A stretch of DNA of 59,855 nt, counting the filler. It is 9 parts of 9 records of this genome, joined end to end, with 100 filler letters (N's around TTAATTAATTAA, not from the genome) between each part and the next. Parts side by side here need not be neighbours in the genome. Positions count along the whole stretch, not along the records: positions 45,358 to 52,739 come from SRR31147125_103170; 8 more parts are not named here. The stretch is one strand, 5' to 3'. Both the position numbers and the translations under genes were made by a program. Positions within the stretch are counted from its first letter, which is position 1. Each line of letters opens with the position of its first letter. Shown here in pieces: positions 45,358 through 52,739 of this stretch. The notes beneath the pieces were generated by a model, which made no database searches, had not been told where the DNA came from, and worked only from the letters and a program-made list of their open reading frames with translations.

Positions 45358-45585
45358 AAAAAGATATGAAAAAGCTTTGAGGCTAAATGGAGCGGTGCAT
45401 CAAAAGTTTGATGAACTAGGAATTACGATGCCCGGAGGTTGGTTTTGGTCGGAATTGCTAGATAAATATATTGGAGAAGCCATTAATACCGTTGGACCGG
45501 AACAGGCTCAGGTGTTAGATCAAGAGGAAGAAAGATGGGCTTTGAAAAAGCTATGGAATATGCACTGGATTTTGATAAGGATTAG
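45358..45585 (+). CDS. C-terminus of a TPR/ATPase- or kinase-type signalling protein, 5' partial
   Basis: RYEKALRLNGA...GPEQAQ, then after a one-base shift GRKMGFEKAMEYALDFDKD*, resembling the EGRAMSLEQAVAYAL-type tail. Confidence 0.55.
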
Positions 45586-45603
45586 TTGAAGAGGTCTCTA
45601 TTA

Positions 45604-45672
45604 ATGATCGGAAAGACTATATCACACTACAAAATCCCAGAAAAACTCGGCGAAGGTGGTATAGATAGATAA
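45604..45672 (+). pseudogene. Ser/Thr protein kinase N-terminal stub
   Basis: MIGKTISHYKIPEKLGEGG followed at once by IDR*; this is the typical start of Hanks-type kinases. Confidence 0.75.
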
Positions 45673-45689
45673 ATTCGAGATAAAAAGAT

Positions 45690-45950
45690 GTGAGCAAAGA
45701 AAAACCTAAAATCTTCCTCAGCTGTGCCCACGCCGATATTGGCATGGCAAAACGGATCAATCAACACCTGAAACACTATGAACTGGATATATGGTTTCAT
45801 AATGAGTCGTTGTTAGCTTGCCAGAACTGCAAGTTTGACATCAACAAAGCCATTAAGAACAGCACACAGTTTGTTGCGTGACTCTCCAAAGAGTCCATTG
45901 ACAAAGTCGAGTATGTGCAGAAGGAATTGAGGATGCAATTGAAATGCTCG
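45690..45950 (+). pseudogene. Degraded TIR-domain gene
   Basis: KIFLSCAHAD...DIWFHNESLL...INKAIKNS.QFVA*LSKES...YVQKEL with an internal TGA at 45879. Confidence 0.75.
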
Positions 45951-46352
45951 ATAGACATCCACTGTCGAACACATACAATAAAATTGAGAAAGATGCAGAA
46001 TCAAAAATTTTGTATTAAAAGTGAATCAAATAAAAGCCTTGCTTTTAAATAAAGAATCTCTTGATTTTAAGCGAAAAGCGTCCACATTGTTCTAAGGACA
46101 TACAAGGATTCCTCTTCAATCAGCATCGAGAGATTCTTGAACACTGCTTTCGCCATATTTTCGCTTTTCGATTGTTAGTCGACATGTGGATCAAACGAAA
46201 GCATTAACACACCTACTACATCTTTAGGAAAAGGTTGTATCTTTTGGTTAGGCGAGCAGTTCCGGTCCTTAACGAGACGTGATCCAGGTATTATTCGCGT
46301 TAAAGCAAAGAAGCCTCCTACAATCAATCAGAAATATAGAAAGAGAAAATGT

Positions 46353-47888
46353 TTGGCTAATAAAGTCGATATAGCTGACAACGACGCCCATCTCAACATC
46401 GTCGAACTAGCAGAAATTCTCTCACGCCAAATTGAATATGGGGAGATTGCCCGGTTTGTGTCGCAAAAAGCTGTTAGCACACTTGGGGCAGAAGTGGCAC
46501 TCATTTTAATGATCAATCCGCAAACTCGGCATACAGTGAAGACTATTTTCAGGCAAGGCTATGAAATCGAGCATCCCCGCTATCGGGCCGTGCAAAATCT
46601 TATCAGCGGATGGATCATGAAACATAAAGAAGCATTTTGTTGTGCAGATATTCGGAAGGATCCACAATTTAAACAGCTCAAGCTGAATAATCTCGATATC
46701 AAATCAGTGTTGGGTGTGCCATTCCGCATGGAAAATTCAATATTCGGCACGATAATCCTGTTTCGTAAAAAATCAGATCCATCCTACCGTGAGCACCATA
46801 AGAATACACTGGAGCAAATCGCGCTTATTGCTGCTCCTTATGTGCGTAATGTCCAGAAAATCCAGCAATATTTTGAAGCGCCGATGCATAAAACAGCGCT
46901 ATTGGATAAGTATAAAAAATTGGGGCTTTTAGGTAAAAGCAGACGCTTCATTGAAATGCTTCAGGCGATTGAAGCGGCTTCCCGTTGTGATGTCAGAGTG
47001 TTGCTGGAAGGATCTAGTGGAACCGGGAAGGAGCTAGTTGCAAAAGCGATTCATATATTAAGTGCCCGCAGCTCCGGGCCTTTTATTGCCCTCGACTGCG
47101 GCGCCATTCCAACGAATTTATTGGAGAGTGAACTGTTTGGTCATGTGAAAGGCGCTTTCACCGGCGCAAATTATGATCGCATGGGTCTGCTGGAAGAGGC
47201 AAACGGTGGTACGCTTTTTATGGATGAAATTGTTAACCTGCCGCTTGATATGCAGTCGAAATTAATGCGTGTGTTGCAGGAAGGGGAAATCCGACCGGTG
47301 GGAAGTAACAAGGCCCGCAAAGTTGACGTGCGTATTATTTCTGCTGCCAGTGTATCGCTGCAAAAAATGATAGAGAAACAACTATTTCGTGAGGATTTAT
47401 TTTATCGCTTGTATGTGTATCCGATTTTAATTCCTTCTCTCGATGCCCGCAGCGAAGATATTCCCACATTAGCGAATCACTTTCTGAAAAAATATGCAAA
47501 ACAGCAGAACAAAAAAGCTGAGCTATTTCATGCAGACATGTTGCATTATTTGAAAAATCGTAACTGGCACGGCAATGTACGCGAGCTGGAAAATATCGTA
47601 GAAAGGTTAGTCACACTTGCTACTGTTGACATGGTCGAGTTGAATCATGAAATTTTGCCTCGCGATTTGCTGAAGGAATTCAAAGAAATGAAATTTGAGA
47701 TTGAGGACCATGACGTCCCGAGGTCATTATCTGAAAGCATTGATGAATACGAGAAAGATCTCATCCGCCAGGCGTTAATTAGACACAATTGGAATCAGGC
47801 TAAGGCCGCCCGGGCACTGAAGATTCCCAAACAAACCATTGGTTATAAAATGCAAAAATTGGGAATAAAAAAACCTGAATCAGATTAG
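46353..47888 (+). CDS. Sigma54-dependent transcriptional activator (GAF-AAA+-Fis HTH)
   Basis: GAF domain, GSSGTGKEL, ESELFGHVKGAFTGA, WHGNVRELEN, HTH. Confidence 0.93.
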   Translation: MANKVDIADNDAHLNIVELAEILSRQIEYGEIARFVSQKAVSTLGAEVALILMINPQTRHTVKTIFRQGYEIEHPRYRAVQNLISGWIMKHKEAFCCADIRKDPQFKQLKLNNLDIKSVLGVPFRMENSIFGTIILFRKKSDPSYREHHKNTLEQIALIAAPYVRNVQKIQQYFEAPMHKTALLDKYKKLGLLGKSRRFIEMLQAIEAASRCDVRVLLEGSSGTGKELVAKAIHILSARSSGPFIALDCGAIPTNLLESELFGHVKGAFTGANYDRMGLLEEANGGTLFMDEIVNLPLDMQSKLMRVLQEGEIRPVGSNKARKVDVRIISAASVSLQKMIEKQLFREDLFYRLYVYPILIPSLDARSEDIPTLANHFLKKYAKQQNKKAELFHADMLHYLKNRNWHGNVRELENIVERLVTLATVDMVELNHEILPRDLLKEFKEMKFEIEDHDVPRSLSESIDEYEKDLIRQALIRHNWNQAKAARALKIPKQTIGYKMQKLGIKKPESD

Positions 47889-48158
47889 CTGATGGATCAC
47901 CCTTTACATCCCCGGTTTTCATTACAACACATTTCATAATTCTTCAAATAGCTGCTATTTCATTACTCCCTTCATTTAAAAACATCATAAAATCTGTACA
48001 AAAATATTTACCCCTAACCTCCACAAAAACAGTCTCCATTTTTTAGTCCAATGATTGAGCCCGAAAGCGATTGAAATGGGTAAATGTGCATTTGTTGGAC
48101 TTTGACTAACCTATTATTATTTAATGTTTTGACATGGTATGAAAAATGAAATAAAAGC

Positions 48159-48174
48159 TGGCATGTTTATTGAA
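48159..48174 (+). promoter_or_regulatory. Candidate sigma54 promoter (variant -12)
   Basis: TGGCATGTTTATTGAA downstream of the activator gene; inverted AGTCCAA/TTGGACT half-sites upstream. Confidence 0.5.
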
Positions 48175-48357
48175 TATAGAAGCTTTGAGACAGCAAAAAA
48201 CAATTTTCTAATAACAGCAACCTTTGAACAAGAGTTAAGCAATTGACTTAACTAGCACCAAACCATTAAAGGAGGTGATGACAAAATCAAATTGAGTGTA
48301 TTCAAATCACTTAAATCATAATTCTGAAAGAAGCAATGTCATGTTGAAAAATCAGTT

Positions 48358-48777
48358 ATGTTGGTCTCTCTTGTATTCATTTTCGCCTGTGTAGTTTTTG
48401 CTACTGTTCCACAAAAAATCAACTATCAGGGATATCTTGCAGATGGCAGTGGCACCCCAATTATATCAACGACACCCCTTAAAATCACTATTAAAATTTA
48501 CAGCTCGGCATCAACAGCAATCCATTTATGGATGGCAACTTGTAGTATTCGCGTTAATGATGGTATGTTTAACGTAACATTAGGGAGTCCTGATTATTTG
48601 GGTGCTAACAAGGAAATTCCATACACCGTATTTAATGGCGACGTAAGATGGCTGGGTACATCTGTCAGTGGTGAGCCTGAAATGACGTCACGTAAAAAGT
48701 ATACCAGTGTTGCCTACAGTTTCAAACAAGATGTGGAATATAGCATAAAAATTCAAGGAGGAAATTTATCATGTTAA
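48358..48777 (+). CDS. Secreted hypothetical protein (VPQKINYQG-type domain), possibly truncated
   Basis: Signal peptide, VPQKINYQGYL, GMFNVTLG, RWLG and SVAYS motifs. Confidence 0.6.
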   Translation: MLVSLVFIFACVVFATVPQKINYQGYLADGSGTPIISTTPLKITIKIYSSASTAIHLWMATCSIRVNDGMFNVTLGSPDYLGANKEIPYTVFNGDVRWLGTSVSGEPEMTSRKKYTSVAYSFKQDVEYSIKIQGGNLSC

Positions 48778-49520
48778 AACGAAATTTTAAAACATCATGG
48801 ACGACGATTCTTATCATCGCAATTCTGGTTTTGTATAGTGATTGCGGCAAGGATCAACCTACAAAGGTTACAACATTACAGGAAGAACCTAAGACAGGTA
48901 CAGTAACGGATATAGATGGAAATGTCTATAAAACCGTGATAATAGGCAGTCAATGGTGGATGGCAGAGAATCTGAAGGTAACCCATTACCGTAATGGTGA
49001 GGCCATCCCCTTGGCAAACACAACTGCTGAGTGGAATGAAAAAAAAGATAGTGGTTGCCTTTATTGTAATCCTGATTTTAATACATCACTTGGGAAGGAG
49101 CGTGGCCTAATGTACAATTGGTATGCAGCAGTTGATAATAGAAAAATCGCTCCTGAGGGATGGCATGTACCGAGTGATGCAGAATGGAAAACATTGGCTG
49201 ATCGCCTTGGAGGTTTAAGTGTAGCCGGCGGCGCAATGAAAGAACAGGGTACGGATCATTGGCAAGCACCTAATACTGGCGCAACTAATTCAAGTGGGTT
49301 TACCGCAATACCTTCCGGAGTCACAATACCTTCCGGGGTGACTGGAGCTGGAGATGGAGGTCATATTTATACGGATATATTCGCCAATTACTGGAGTTCA
49401 ACAGAAGTCGACGCTTACAAGGCAAGGGAATATGCAATTAGAACCAATCTTGTTGATTTGCAAAGTCGGGATGTAGATAAGAATTTTGGCCTTGCCATTC
49501 GCTGTATAAAGGATGATTGA
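48771..49520 (+). CDS. FISUMP (Fibrobacter succinogenes major paralogous) domain lipoprotein
   Basis: DIDGNVYKTV.IG.QWWMAENL, YNWYA, PEGWHVPSDAEW, YWSST and IRCIKD motifs. Confidence 0.9.
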   Translation: MLKRNFKTSWTTILIIAILVLYSDCGKDQPTKVTTLQEEPKTGTVTDIDGNVYKTVIIGSQWWMAENLKVTHYRNGEAIPLANTTAEWNEKKDSGCLYCNPDFNTSLGKERGLMYNWYAAVDNRKIAPEGWHVPSDAEWKTLADRLGGLSVAGGAMKEQGTDHWQAPNTGATNSSGFTAIPSGVTIPSGVTGAGDGGHIYTDIFANYWSSTEVDAYKAREYAIRTNLVDLQSRDVDKNFGLAIRCIKDD

Positions 49521-49596
49521 TTATTTTGTTTTGGTCTCTGATAGGAATAAACTCATCATATACAATATTTTGTATTATTTTACTTTAAATTTAACA

Positions 49597-49614
49597 GCTT
49601 AACCATTGCTTGTA
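49597..49614 (+). other. Putative left arm (R''/L'') of a truncated attC site
   Basis: GCTTAAC-CATTGCTTGTA parallels AGCTAAC-CAAGCGTTTGTA of the intact attC at 50633. Confidence 0.4.
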
Positions 49615-49626
49615 ATTTATTGTAAA

Positions 49627-49914
49627 CCAGGGCATGATCGGATAGCCGACAGGAACGCGCTGGATACCATGAACTAAGGAAACGCCGGATCAGTCGTCAA
49701 CTGGCGTGGAACACGACTAAATCCGCTCATGGCCCGTGGCGATTGAGTCGTAGTCCAGCATTATCGATTGCATTACCCGGTCAATACTTTGACTCGATGG
49801 GACTGCCACGGTTACACGTTCAATAAACATAACCGATCGAATCGCCCTGGTACGTGATCCGTATGCCGGGTGCTGTAGCAGGAGCAAGGTCGTGAGACCT
49901 CGCCCTATCCTGAT
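49627..49914 (+). mobile_element. Group IIC(-attC) intron remnant: RT/maturase C-terminus plus domains V-VI
   Basis: 49656-49826 encodes RAGYHELRKRRISRQLAWNTTKSAHGPWRLSRSPALSIALPGQYFDSMGLPRLHVQ*; DV GAATCGCCCTGGTACGTGATCCGTATGCCGGGTGCTGT; DVI AGGTCGTGAGACCT; ends CCTATCCTGAT, followed by TAGACTC. Confidence 0.88.
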
Positions 49915-49959
49915 TAGACTCTCAACGCACTAAATGTGTAATTAGAACTTGTATAACTT

Positions 49960-50587
49960 GTGGAGGGAAATAGAAAATTTAAAGCTAAAAACTCTAAAAA
50001 ATCTGTCTAGTAATTCTTTAATACTATTAGTTATTGGATCTATAATAGGCTCTTTCATTATACCCTCGATTAGTTCTTAATCAAATCAGCAAAAACTATT
50101 ACAAGAGACAAGATTAAAAAAAACAATTGAAATTGTTACGCGCGACTCAGAAATTAATCGCCAGTTAAATACTATTCAAACGACCCTAGAGCTGTTCCAT
50201 AAGGATAACCTCAGCGGTGTTACTAATCTTGATGATTACAAGGAAGCCCAAAAAGAACTTTGTGAGCATATAAATGTGCTTTATCTTGAGCTCAACAAAT
50301 ACGCCTGGTGGTGGCATTGGGATATATACCAAGAAGCAATTATACTTGATTTAGCCTATAAAAATGAATTGCAGACCATTAGCGATACTCTAACAGCCTA
50401 TAAAAAAGGTTGAGTGAAAGTATTGGAACTCTATACTTTTTCATTCGAGTGTCTTAAGGAGAATTATGATCCAGCTGATACAACGGTTACCATTAAAATG
50501 GAAAAGACTCACGAAAATTTGACAAATTTAAGGATTAAACGCGATGAACAGATAAGCAAGATTGCCCAAGTAATTATGTCGAAATAG
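49960..50587 (+). pseudogene. Degraded AT-rich gene-cassette ORF (N-terminal TM, helical)
   Basis: Fragments NSLILLVIGSIIGSFIIPSISS*SNQQKLLQETRLKK...KYAWWWHWDIYQEA...KRDEQISKIAQVIMSK*; lies between TAGAC and the attC. Confidence 0.55.
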
Positions 50588-50632
50588 ACTTGATATAAAG
50601 TTATGAGAGTTGTTTGAAAATTGCGCAGGGGC

Positions 50633-50761
50633 AGCTAACCAAGCGTTTGTATCCGATTGCGGGTTCTGTGCATTTATAAAAGTTCGGAGAATTCTTAAGT
50701 TTGGAGAGTTAATCAAGTTTGGTGGTCGAAGCCGCCAACGGCTGAAACGTGTTCGTTAGGC
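50633..50761 (+). other. Integron attC recombination site (129 bp)
   Basis: R'' AGCTAAC and R' GTTAGGC; arms CGTTTGTATCCGATTGCGG and CCGCCAACGGCTGAAACG pair with bulged G and A; AT-rich variable centre. Confidence 0.8.
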
Positions 50762-50876
50762 AATGATAATTACCCATAAGATTTGAAAGTAGGTGACGCC
50801 TTTGCTTGTATGACATTGGTTTTATATTGTTCTTGAGAGAACTTGTTATATTTACCAATTCCAGGAAGAACAAACA

Positions 50877-52616
50877 ATGTTGTCAACCAAAAAAGTATTT
50901 ATGTTATTTTTTGTTTTTATACTTTTACTTACAATGAATGATTTCATTTTTTCAGCAACTTTTCTCGTTACCAACTCACTAGACAGCGGTCCAGGCTCAC
51001 TGCGCCAGGCGATTATCGATGCTAACAATAGTCCTGGTGAGGATAACATTGAATTCAATATCGCTGGGCAAGGTCCGCATGTAATTCAAGTGGAAGATGT
51101 GTTTCCATTTGTTAATGATCATGTGAATATTGATGGATATACACAACCTGGCGCTTTGCCAGCAACAGAAATTCAAGCGGCAGTAATAAAAATTGTATTA
51201 AATGGTGGCCTGGTTTCTGAGCCTTCCAGTCGCCCATTTGCAGGCCTGAATATTGGAAATAATTGTTCGATCCGCGGTCTGGTCATTCAGGAATTTGAAA
51301 TGGGGATCAATCTGGCTGGTGACAATAATATTGTAAAAGGTAACTATATTGGCTTGAATGTCACCGGAACAACAGCAATGGGCAATGACACAGATGGAAT
51401 TATTATTACTTCCAATCACAATACAGTTGGTGGCTCAACACCAGCTAGTCGGAATATTATTTCTGGTAACCGTGGTGATGGCGTTGCCATATTCTTTAAT
51501 TCACATTATAATACGATCATTGGTAATTATATAGGTACCGATGCAACTGGAGGATTTGCCATTGCCAATGTTTGGCAAGGCATTTCGATTAGCGGAAACG
51601 GCAATCAAGTTGGAAGTGAAAATCCTGGGGAGGGCAATGTTATATCCGGTAATCCAGGACATGGTGTTTATATTTCTATCTGGAGTGATGAGCATGATGT
51701 GCCAATTAATAACAGAGTAATAGGAAATAGAATTGGTACAAATGCTACCGGTACAATTCAATTATCAAATGGTCACGGGATAACGATAAACACTGCTGCA
51801 AAGACGACGATTGCGAATAATCTTATTTCAGGCAATGAAGATTCGGGAATATCGATTGATAATGAATATGCTGACGGTAATCTCATCACTCAAAATTCTA
51901 TCCACTCCAATGGCATGTTAGGAATTGACCTAAATATCGATTGGGTAACTGAAAATGATCCAGGTGATGGCGATGCTGGCGCTAACAATTCGATGAATTT
52001 TCCTGTACTAACTTCAGCTATGGCTACCCCGGGCAGAATTGTCCTCAAGGGTTATATTGACTCGCCAAATCCGACAAAGATTACACTGGAATTTTTTGCC
52101 AATTCCAATCCCGATCCTACTGAATATGGTGAAGGTGAAATATTTCTTGGCACTGCGAAACCGAACACCAACGGAGAATTTACAGCAGCGTTATCATCCG
52201 TTTCGCCCGGAACTTTCATTTCCGCTACAGCAACTGATAACGACAATAACACTTCTGAGTTTGCTAAAAACATCGAAGCAGTGGGACCAGGACAATTAGG
52301 AAAATCCATTACTTATCAAGCAATCTCCTCCGCTCCTTTAGAATTTGCTTTAGCTCAGAATCACCCTAATCCATTTAATCCCGAGACTCAAATTCGTTTC
52401 CAGCTTCCCGTCGCCAGTCATGTTACGCTTAAAATTTTCAACATTCTTGGTGAAAAAGTCAGAACATTAATCAATGGTCAATATGAAGCAGGCTATCATG
52501 CTGCTCATTGGGATGGAAAATACTATAATGGAAATAATGTATCAAGTGGAATTTATATATACTACATGAAGGCAGGTACTTTTTCTCAGGTAAAGAAGCT
52601 GAGTTTAATTCGATAA
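50877..52616 (+). CDS. Secreted right-handed parallel beta-helix protein with C-terminal FlgD-Ig/sorting domain
   Basis: DSGPGSLRQAI..AN, repeated GNYIG/NIISGN, LGIDL...NDPGDGDAGAN, and C-terminal QNHPNPFNPET...WDG...SGIYIY. Confidence 0.88.
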   Translation: MLSTKKVFMLFFVFILLLTMNDFIFSATFLVTNSLDSGPGSLRQAIIDANNSPGEDNIEFNIAGQGPHVIQVEDVFPFVNDHVNIDGYTQPGALPATEIQAAVIKIVLNGGLVSEPSSRPFAGLNIGNNCSIRGLVIQEFEMGINLAGDNNIVKGNYIGLNVTGTTAMGNDTDGIIITSNHNTVGGSTPASRNIISGNRGDGVAIFFNSHYNTIIGNYIGTDATGGFAIANVWQGISISGNGNQVGSENPGEGNVISGNPGHGVYISIWSDEHDVPINNRVIGNRIGTNATGTIQLSNGHGITINTAAKTTIANNLISGNEDSGISIDNEYADGNLITQNSIHSNGMLGIDLNIDWVTENDPGDGDAGANNSMNFPVLTSAMATPGRIVLKGYIDSPNPTKITLEFFANSNPDPTEYGEGEIFLGTAKPNTNGEFTAALSSVSPGTFISATATDNDNNTSEFAKNIEAVGPGQLGKSITYQAISSAPLEFALAQNHPNPFNPETQIRFQLPVASHVTLKIFNILGEKVRTLINGQYEAGYHAAHWDGKYYNGNNVSSGIYIYYMKAGTFSQVKKLSLIR

Positions 52617-52664
52617 CATTATTAACTAATTTGTAAGATACAATAAGTAAATAGAATGCGTCTA

Positions 52665-52739
52665 ATCGGGTAAGGGCGGGTATTACTCCCGCCCTCCCCA
52701 CACCACCGAACATGCGGCTTCCCGAAAGCTTTCGGGATT
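52665..52739 (-). mobile_element. 3' end of a group IIC-attC intron (half of DV plus DVI) inserted in an attC R'' site; cut by contig end
   Basis: Minus strand CCGCATGTTCGGTGGTGTGGGGAG-GGCGGGAGTAATACCCGCC-CTTACCCGAT followed by TAGACGC (top strand GCGTCTA|, i.e. an interrupted GTCTAAC). Confidence 0.85.

Follow-up and report, generated by a model that had tools for sequence, protein, structure and literature searches.

Features of the Locus

The DNA examined here, which we call the window, is a 59.9-kb stretch made of nine contigs joined by spacers of N or TTAATTAATTAA. On one of these contigs (45358–52739, 7.4 kb), a pseudogene, an attC-like site of the kind found in integron cassette arrays, and an intact gene lie between the 3' ends of two group IIC introns that face each other (Table 1; here and below, a slash marks the point of intron insertion). 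An earlier reading of the bare sequence (the original prediction) had described an integron-type array at this place, and most of the parts that it named were recovered: a plus-strand group II intron 3' part ending AT/TAGACTC, a decayed open reading frame (ORF), a 579-aa gene, and a minus-strand intron end at 52665 followed by TAGACGC, with both introns at GT/T of a GTTRRRY-type core. As that reading had also stated, the contig carries no integrase; no IntI-like sequence was found in the entire window at E < 1.

Table 1. Coordinates of the features between and including the two intron ends (positions are those of the window; IEP, intron-encoded protein).
Feature	Position	Strand	Description and basis
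Intron 1	49652–49914	+	3'-terminal part (about 263 nt) of a group IIC intron of about 1.9 kb; blastn to fetched intron loci, IEP tail match, folding of the terminal 88 nt
3' exon of intron 1, TAGACTC	49915–49921	+	Read as the rest of an attC R' core (GT/TAGAC)
Cassette A pseudogene	49946–50587	+	Single frame with in-frame stops TAA (50078–50080) and TGA (50411–50413)
attC-like site, 129 nt	50633–50761	+	R'' at 50633–50639, R' (GTTAGGC) at 50755–50761; covariance model R2, arm alignment
Cassette B gene, 579 aa	50877–52616	+	Secreted protein made of a parallel beta-helix and a type IX secretion sorting domain; Pfam NosD/Beta_helix, FlgD_ig, Por_Secre_tail
GTCTA	52660–52664	+	Read as the left part of an R'' core (GTCTA/AC) cut by intron 2; 43 nt past the stop of the 579-aa gene
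Intron 2	52665–52739	-	3' end of an antisense, classical IIC-attC-like group IIC intron, cut short by the end of the contig

Intron 1 Is a Truncated Group IIC Intron

In blastn comparisons with 84 fetched loci, the nucleotide homology of intron 1 began at 49652–49704 and stopped at 49914–49916. Its DNA was 80% identical over 214 nt (E = 9e-51) to the intron L004 of a KSB1 metagenome-assembled genome (MAG). The tail of an IEP occupies 49638–49823 (62 residues, followed by the stop codon TAA at 49824–49826); it matched 213 of 242 scored candidate proteins at E ≤ 0.001, and the best match, at 91% identity, was a 439-aa protein with reverse transcriptase (RT) and maturase (GIIM) domains. Domain 5 (D5), at about 49845–49870, is homologous to the D5 of full-length relatives. 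It is followed by domain 6 (D6), at about 49880–49911, with a bulged A 8 nt from the end and a 3' junction that reads ...GAT/TAGACTC. At both intron ends of the locus the fold gives a D6 containing a bulged A and the last letters are GAT, in agreement with the ...AY 3' end of group IIC introns.

The remainder of the element has been lost. The first 1.7 kb or so is gone, including domains 1 to 4 (D1–D4), the 5' end GUGYG, and about 85% of the IEP, of which only the last 60 or so residues are left; the proteins that these residues match are RT and GIIM proteins of about 440 aa. Because D1–D4 and most of the IEP are missing, intron 1 cannot splice or move. An Rfam search for group II introns, which the original prediction had proposed as a check, matched neither intron: there were no matches in the window at the gathering threshold, and no group II match and no D1–D4 at E ≤ 10 within 49300–52739. 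This silence is uninformative, because model RF00029 likewise fails to recognize D5/D6 in two true integron introns, L001 and L002.

Relatives of Intron 1 Appear to Insert Into the Coding Strand of attC Sites

We compared intron 1 with 81 loci, i.e., 79 genome loci with related IEPs and two plasmid loci (pR148 and pPp47). Both intron ends could be mapped in 66 of them, which yielded 63 distinct sites. The 5' exon ended in CGT at 49 of these sites, and the first base of the 3' exon was T at all but one (62/63). Another 11 sites, all from one MAG, were classic terminators with a GC hairpin and a T run, where the 5' exon ended in TTAT/ or TTTT/. Examples of the CGT/T type, among loci L001–L081, are L029:354–2086 and L042:3060–4072.

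A covariance model (R1) was built from 11 short attCs of the fetched loci, with compensatory changes in 11 of 16 pairs. Across the 54 loci searched, R1 gave 68 matches at E ≤ 0.01, every one of them on the strand of the intron (68/68), and none in terminator-type loci. A model match spanned the 5' junction in 16 of 35 sense-clade loci, and the main ORF lay on the intron's strand in each of the 17 segments between consecutive attC matches. The pR148 intron sits in the attC after aadA1 and the pPp47 intron in the attC after aac(6')-Ib4; both are on the resistance-cassette strand and both cut at GT/TAGAT. As a strand control we used L124, a class 1 integron with a classical intron after dfrA14, where the intron was on the plus strand and the cassettes and attC matches were on the minus strand.

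The position of intron 1 among these elements was assessed with an IEP tree of 68 rows (quick search; branch support from the Shimodaira–Hasegawa-like approximate likelihood ratio test, SH-aLRT), rooted on a single classical IIC-attC IEP (L124) after seven loci with an IEP shorter than 380 aa and all identical sequences had been dropped. The window's IEP tail, which fills only 14% of the tree columns, joined the IEP P0001 (SH-aLRT 93) in a six-row clade (100) with Calditrichaceae and KSB1 introns. This clade is nested in a 58-row clade (98) that holds the CGT/T introns, including those of pR148 and pPp47, and in which the 5' exon ends in CGT in 40 of the 42 rows with a mapped 5' exon. The terminator-type introns are the sister of the 58-row clade, and the classical outgroup is distant. 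The expectation that the tail would group with attC-targeting rather than terminator-targeting introns was correct insofar as it falls in an attC-associated clade with the terminator type as sister; it is not in the classical IIC-attC clade, lying far from the L124 IEP and inside the CGT/T clade. Intron 1 has the other marks of this sense-strand clade as well, namely a 3' exon that starts with T and continues as the remainder of R', and co-orientation with the attC-like site at 50633 and both ORFs; the CGT/ of its 5' exon has been truncated away.

Classical IIC-attC introns are described as antisense elements that insert into the bottom strand at R'' (TTGT/T) (PMC3001079; PMC7923331). PMC7923331 mentions one "unusual" sense-strand IIC intron in an attC, from E. 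cloacae, citing Rodriguez-Martinez et al. (2012). This single mention was the only one of sense-strand attC homing that we found in openly accessible texts, and we do not claim that the clade is undescribed. Our comparisons, with 68 of 68 model matches and 17 of 17 cassette ORFs co-oriented with CGT/T introns, point to a broad sense-strand attC-homing clade. We tentatively suggest, at somewhat less than even odds, that intron 1 belongs to a large and environmentally widespread IIC clade that homes into the top (coding) strand of attC at R' (CGT/T) in cassette orientation, that occurs in clinical class 1 integrons as well as in a dozen or more phyla ranging from Desulfobacterota to Patescibacteria, and that is phylogenetically separate from the classical antisense lineage; the window would then hold a single array that the two lineages had invaded on opposite strands. 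If this were true, introns in the sense orientation could be spliced out of cassette transcripts, whereas those of the antisense lineage cannot. Such introns would be co-transcribed with the cassettes and would bear on cassette expression and on models of cassette origin. The clade may matter more than the locus itself; the accessible literature treats introns of this kind as a single oddity.

In the L004 KSB1 contig, an Rfam Intron_gpII (D5/D6) match at 2019–2229, on the strand of the IIC intron, stops 101 nt before that intron begins. This contig holds two different group II introns, which are in tandem or nested.

Intron 2 Probably Belongs to an Antisense Lineage

The visible 75 nt of intron 2 fold well (z = -3.7), with the D6 branch A 7 nt from the end, and finish in GAT/TAGACGC. 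Among 167 genomes from the phylum to which the Calditrichaceae MAG G001 belongs, 24 held matches, the best being 92% identical over 53 nt. The intron is identical at 37 of 45 positions to Calditrichaceae elements that share its ...TTACCCGAT end. It lies on the minus strand, antisense to the adjacent gene and to the attC-like site at 50633, which are both on the plus strand; intron 1, in contrast, is in sense. The original prediction had taken the two for IIC-attC introns of one kind. Both have attC-associated relatives, but one is of the sense-strand clade and the other resembles the antisense lineage.

The relatives in G001 show how such elements are placed. One copy, L086, is an IEP-less element of about 460 nt that is homologous to the classical L124 intron at its 5' end. 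It is inserted at ATTGT/T in a member of a 127-nt attC family of G001, antisense to toxin-antitoxin-like ORFs. A tblastn search of the G001 intron-2-like loci with P0001 gave no match, and on that basis these copies carry no IEP. Wherever attC matches were found near members of the intron 2 lineage, they were on the opposite strand (5/5 cases, including L086 and L088).

A different arrangement, with two arrays facing each other, was also considered. Intron 2 would then be a sense-strand intron in the R' of a minus-oriented attC to the right, and the 579-aa gene would not be the cassette of that site. An attC is near-palindromic, so the cut core alone gives no strand; just 75 nt of the intron are visible, and their D5 3' strand and J5/6 linker are as similar to the sense clade as to the classical intron. 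The D6 end tells otherwise. The terminal 12 nt (...CCCTTACCCGAT), together with a branch A placed 7 nt from the end, recur in all three copies of G001 and in 9 of the 12 listed copies from the phylum, and the classical intron has the same last 8 nt (TACCCGAT) and the same branch-A position. Nearly all sense-clade introns, on the other hand, end in ...CCCTATCCCGAT with the A 8 nt from the end. Together with the consistent opposite-strand placement of the lineage, these features make two facing arrays very unlikely.

The D5 of intron 2 is atypical: its base helix is still complementary, its upper part is 6 nt longer, and most phylum copies have an ordinary D5. The upper half (52718–52739, RNA positions 1–22 of the 75-nt end) has been replaced or expanded and contains a 16-nt perfect palindrome. 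At least five other, equally deep contigs of sequencing run X1 (depth 33–38) match 52661/52664–52739 with 2–11 differences, have different flanks, and show the same odd D5. This form may represent a propagated variant family or a derivative repeat.

Several observations concern the G001 arrays themselves. The conserved 127-nt attC family has five matches at 78–100% identity, four of them at ≥ 90% (contigs C603, C511, and C816; L090:1850–1976 and L086:785–910). One of them adjoins an integron integrase that scores above the TIGR02249 cut-off; an IntI (476 bits) is present in the KSB1 MAG as well. In L086, the cassettes on either side of the intron relic (50–694 and 1430–2166) encode PIN-like and DUF433-like pairs, as judged by eye from the translations, which agrees with the toxin-antitoxin-rich arrays reported in PMC7923331.

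The Site at 50633–50761 and the Genes on Either Side

The original prediction was to be given up if no covariance-model match were obtained at 50633–50761, and a match was found there with a model of our own. This model (R2) was built from 70 attCs of other organisms and is not that of IntegronFinder; an alignment of eight long attCs made with MAFFT had been rejected as a basis, being too poor. With filters off, R2 scored 20.0 bits at exactly 50633–50761 on the plus strand, covering model positions 1–62 of 62 with 14 of 16 pairs standard. It was the top match of the window (E = 0.0062), the next best reaching 9.5 bits (119.7 kb searched, both strands). The same setting gave 13.5–24.4 bits for four Calditrichaceae/KSB1 attCs on which the model had not been trained, one of them beside an integron integrase, and 39.9–52.6 bits for class 1 attCs. 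When the two arms were aligned, the left one carried an extra base, which is also the pattern seen in known attCs for the top strand; a second extra base was ambiguous. In a crude arm-pairing scan the site ranked first in the contig, but its lead over a site within the sigma-54 gene was just 1 point. A stricter descriptor of extrahelical bases was dropped, since it rejected all 2418 pairs and our site with them; the second extra base is lost through the way in which the alignment breaks ties. DNA searches of genomes G001 and G002 with this site and with the attC L004a revealed no significant relatives beyond L004a itself.

The gene to the left of the site, cassette A, is a pseudogene with the two in-frame stops given in Table 1. 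Its N-terminal part looks like a membrane anchor, and its 57-aa C-terminal ORF (50414–50587), the only part scanned, matched no Pfam family. To the right, the 579-aa gene encodes a beta-helix protein with a tail typical of the type IX secretion system (T9SS). Its homologues, which form a very large beta-helix family, are 32–52% identical (best 120 of 7696), with 38% identity for the match of highest bit score, and among these 120 there was no sign of a shared cassette. A scan of metagenomes with the 579-aa protein gave two loci, which matched in the T9SS tail only.

These genes and introns bear on the idea, raised in the original prediction, that the locus is a snapshot of intron-assisted cassette building. 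Cassette formation with the help of introns has been modeled in print (the Leon and Roy model, as described in PMC7923331), and an intron in the sense orientation could in principle splice out of the cassette transcript. However, intron 1, without D1–D4 and most of its IEP, cannot be expected to splice or move, the cassette between the introns is a pseudogene, and intron 2 is antisense to its adjacent gene and has an atypical D5. We found no evidence for building, and we regard a live system, whether one forming cassettes or one in which active introns regulate the array, as barely credible.

Interpretation of the Locus

We interpret this stretch as the remnant of a small integron-type cassette array with its top strand on the plus strand and no integrase nearby, each outer site of which was invaded by one group IIC intron (probability roughly 0.68). 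All indicators of direction are concordant, in that both strand preferences, both ORFs, and the attC-like site in the middle give a plus orientation. The convergent layout of the introns within one plus-oriented array arises because the two lineages have opposite strand preferences. The layout described in the original prediction is real, and lineage-specific strand preference accounts for it without any bracketing function.

On this interpretation, the upstream attC would have been invaded in its top strand at R' (GT/T) by an intron of the sense-strand attC clade. At the site that follows the 579-aa gene, an intron of the classical antisense IIC-attC kind would have entered the bottom strand, at R'' (GT/T on the complement). 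Homing presumably proceeded by reverse splicing into single-stranded hairpin DNA, with recognition of the hairpin and 3–4 exon bases, as is established for class C introns. Intron 1 would then have lost its first 1.7 kb or so together with the body of its attC, the cassette A gene would have gained two stop codons, and the middle attC would have drifted to marginal stability. Because both outer sites have a divided core, they could probably be neither folded nor cut by an integrase; a "freezing" of the outer sites by the introns would be a plausible consequence. We infer that the two cut cores were once part of attC sites, and the order of events given here is likewise a reconstruction.

Several observations weigh against this interpretation. 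The first set concerns the middle site. R1 missed 50633–50761 at E ≤ 10, both in the whole window with filters off and in the contig with default filters, and R2 missed it with default filters. Sixteen of the 70 training rows of R2, which are 5'-junction matches, end in intron sequence rather than in a full R', and the R2 E-values are rough. The single strands of the site folded no better than shuffled sequences (z = -0.97 and -0.77) and the bottom strand did not fold end to end, while six of the eight long attC controls gave end-to-end folds with z between -3.2 and -6.0. With its ends forced to pair, the site reached -9.4 to -12.0 kcal/mol, which ranked 562 and 322 among all 1160 AAC...GTT pairs of the window. 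Under the same constraint, eight real attCs taken as controls, of which seven were long and one was the 99-nt L002 site, gave -19.2 to -30.9 kcal/mol. A stable bottom-strand hairpin was not obtained for 50633–50761. Taking the R2 match and these results together, we regard the site as a real attC, but a weak or decaying one. It is attC-like at the exact coordinates given in the original prediction, where it was called intact-looking; a site that forms no stable fold and is matched with filters off only is not intact.

The second set concerns the outer sites and the cassettes. No attC body is visible upstream of intron 1, and that of intron 2 lies beyond the contig. The locus accordingly offers one complete attC and two cut cores, where a cluster of attC sites lacking an integrase (CALIN) needs at least two sites without an integrase nearby. 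In the 130 nt between the stop codon of the Fib_succ gene and intron 1 there is no attC (no match to the covariance model), only a 7-mer at 49597. This 7-mer had been proposed as an attC left arm, a proposal that we abandon: its similarity to the 50633 site was no greater than that of shuffled sequences (score 15; mean of the shuffles 15.7, with 1289 of 2000 scoring at least as high). As a 3' exon, TAGAC occurred at none of the 49 CGT-type sites of relatives. Over its full 75 nt, intron 2 is about as close to one sense-clade intron (56/80 identical) as to the Calditrichaceae element L085 (54/77), and its lineage assignment relies mainly on the D6 end and branch-A position within those 75 nt. 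Finally, a 1.9-kb cassette with an ordinary-looking T9SS surface protein is unusual, and no relative of the 579-aa gene was found in another context in the protein search (best 120 of 7696) or the metagenome scan.

Some of these points would also fit a locus without any array, where two introns of attC-targeting lineages had landed ectopically at terminator-like or other hairpins beside ordinary genes and 50633–50761 was a stray site or chance palindrome. IIC-attC introns keep the ability to target terminators, according to PMC7923331. No model match crossed the junction at E ≤ 0.005 in 19 of the 35 sense-clade loci, and the closest full-length relative with flanks, L004, lies 101 nt after the end of another intron and not in a recognized attC. 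The middle site is thermodynamically unremarkable and the neighboring genes are ordinary. Nevertheless, the 20-bit match stands 10.5 bits above the rest of the window and falls in the only intergenic spacer between the two ORFs, on the predicted strand. Both 3' exons read T-AGAC, a perfect continuation of an attC core, whereas terminator-type relatives have T-rich 5' exons and unrelated 3' exons. Neither insertion has a terminator-like hairpin next to it (in the contig as a whole, 7 were counted and 5.7 expected), and all orientations agree. We therefore consider ectopic insertion without an array unlikely and favor the remnant of an invaded array.

Comparison With Known Systems

Within this interpretation, the locus is a decayed example of a known phenomenon and not a new system. 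Truncated group II intron relics have been reported in integrase-less arrays (PMC7923331). The locus resembles CALINs in that co-oriented ORFs are split by an attC-like site and in having no integrase on the contig or in the window; it differs in having one complete, weak attC, two sites deduced from intron cuts, and one large (1.9-kb) cassette. The missing integrase, the one attC, and the two cut cores favor the description as a CALIN-like array, and the presence of only one complete site weakens it. Relatives in the same broad group do carry true integron integrases and conserved 127-nt attC families. To the integrase-less remnants with intron relics, the locus adds an uncultured host that bears a T9SS and appears KSB1/Calditrichota-like, and it would illustrate cleanly how two attC-homing lineages that prefer opposite strands can occupy the same array.

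Intron 1 is most readily compared with the introns of pR148 and pPp47. The IEP tail falls in the same 58-row clade, D5–D6 are closely alike, the cut is at GT/TAGA in R', and the orientation relative to the cassettes is shared. Intron 1 differs from them in that no more than a 263-nt stump is left, which has lost its 5' exon and the body of its attC. Terminator-homing IIC introns are of the same class and are sister to the clade of intron 1 in the tree, but their 5' exons have a GC hairpin and a T run (11 sites, one MAG), a motif that is absent here.

Intron 2 resembles the classical IIC-attC introns of the S.ma.I2 type, exemplified by the ltrA intron after dfrA14 in L124 (plasmid OW968333.1). 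It is likewise antisense to the adjacent cassette gene and likewise appears to cut R'' at GT/T on the bottom strand, and it shares the ...TACCCGAT end and the branch-A position. Its Calditrichaceae relatives are inserted at TTGT/T, and one of them has a 5' end homologous to that of the L124 intron. Intron 2 differs in that only 75 nt are visible, with no IEP or 5' exon among them, and in its atypical D5. The settings also differ, since L124 is on a proteobacterial plasmid while the host here is an uncultured T9SS-bearing bacterium.

Assembly, Host, and Neighboring Genes

A single Logan contig of run X1 (10,100 nt) covers 49300–52739 at an even depth of 37.2 and also ends at 52739. It was probably built from the same reads as the window contig and is not independent support. 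Relative to the window contig it has an extra A after 50249, a 1-nt length difference inside the pseudogene. Runs X2 and X3 hold small shares of the stretch at depth 2–3, namely pieces of the 579-aa gene in X2 and of the pseudogene in X3, and both match the intron ends. A low-depth X3 contig has a TT insertion after 50431 and is otherwise about 98% identical to the pseudogene.

The X1 depth climbs from 37 to about 279 and about 230 across the two intron ends, and the contig stops inside intron 2, as might be seen if unrelated flanks had been fused through intron repeats during assembly. Against such an artefact, the other copies differ by 2–11 bases over 47–79 nt and so are not exact repeats, and the even depth of the X1 contig, with the reservation just given, shows no break across the locus. 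We consider a misassembly extremely improbable.

The label of a KSB1/Calditrichota host, as applied in the original prediction, rests on the similarity of mobile introns and should be taken as provisional. The sigma-54 regulator encoded to the left of the locus is 40–46% identical to its best matches in the two MAGs tested. A Pfam scan found the left-hand genes to be ordinary: a TIR fragment, a GAF/sigma-54 activator (46353–47888), a 139-aa ORF, and a Fib_succ_major protein (48771–49520). In the TIR fragment, a 63-aa ORF (45690–45881), a TIR_2 domain (E = 4e-7) breaks off after its first half, which makes this a truncated TIR gene near the contig start; other short, broken-looking ORFs adjoin it.

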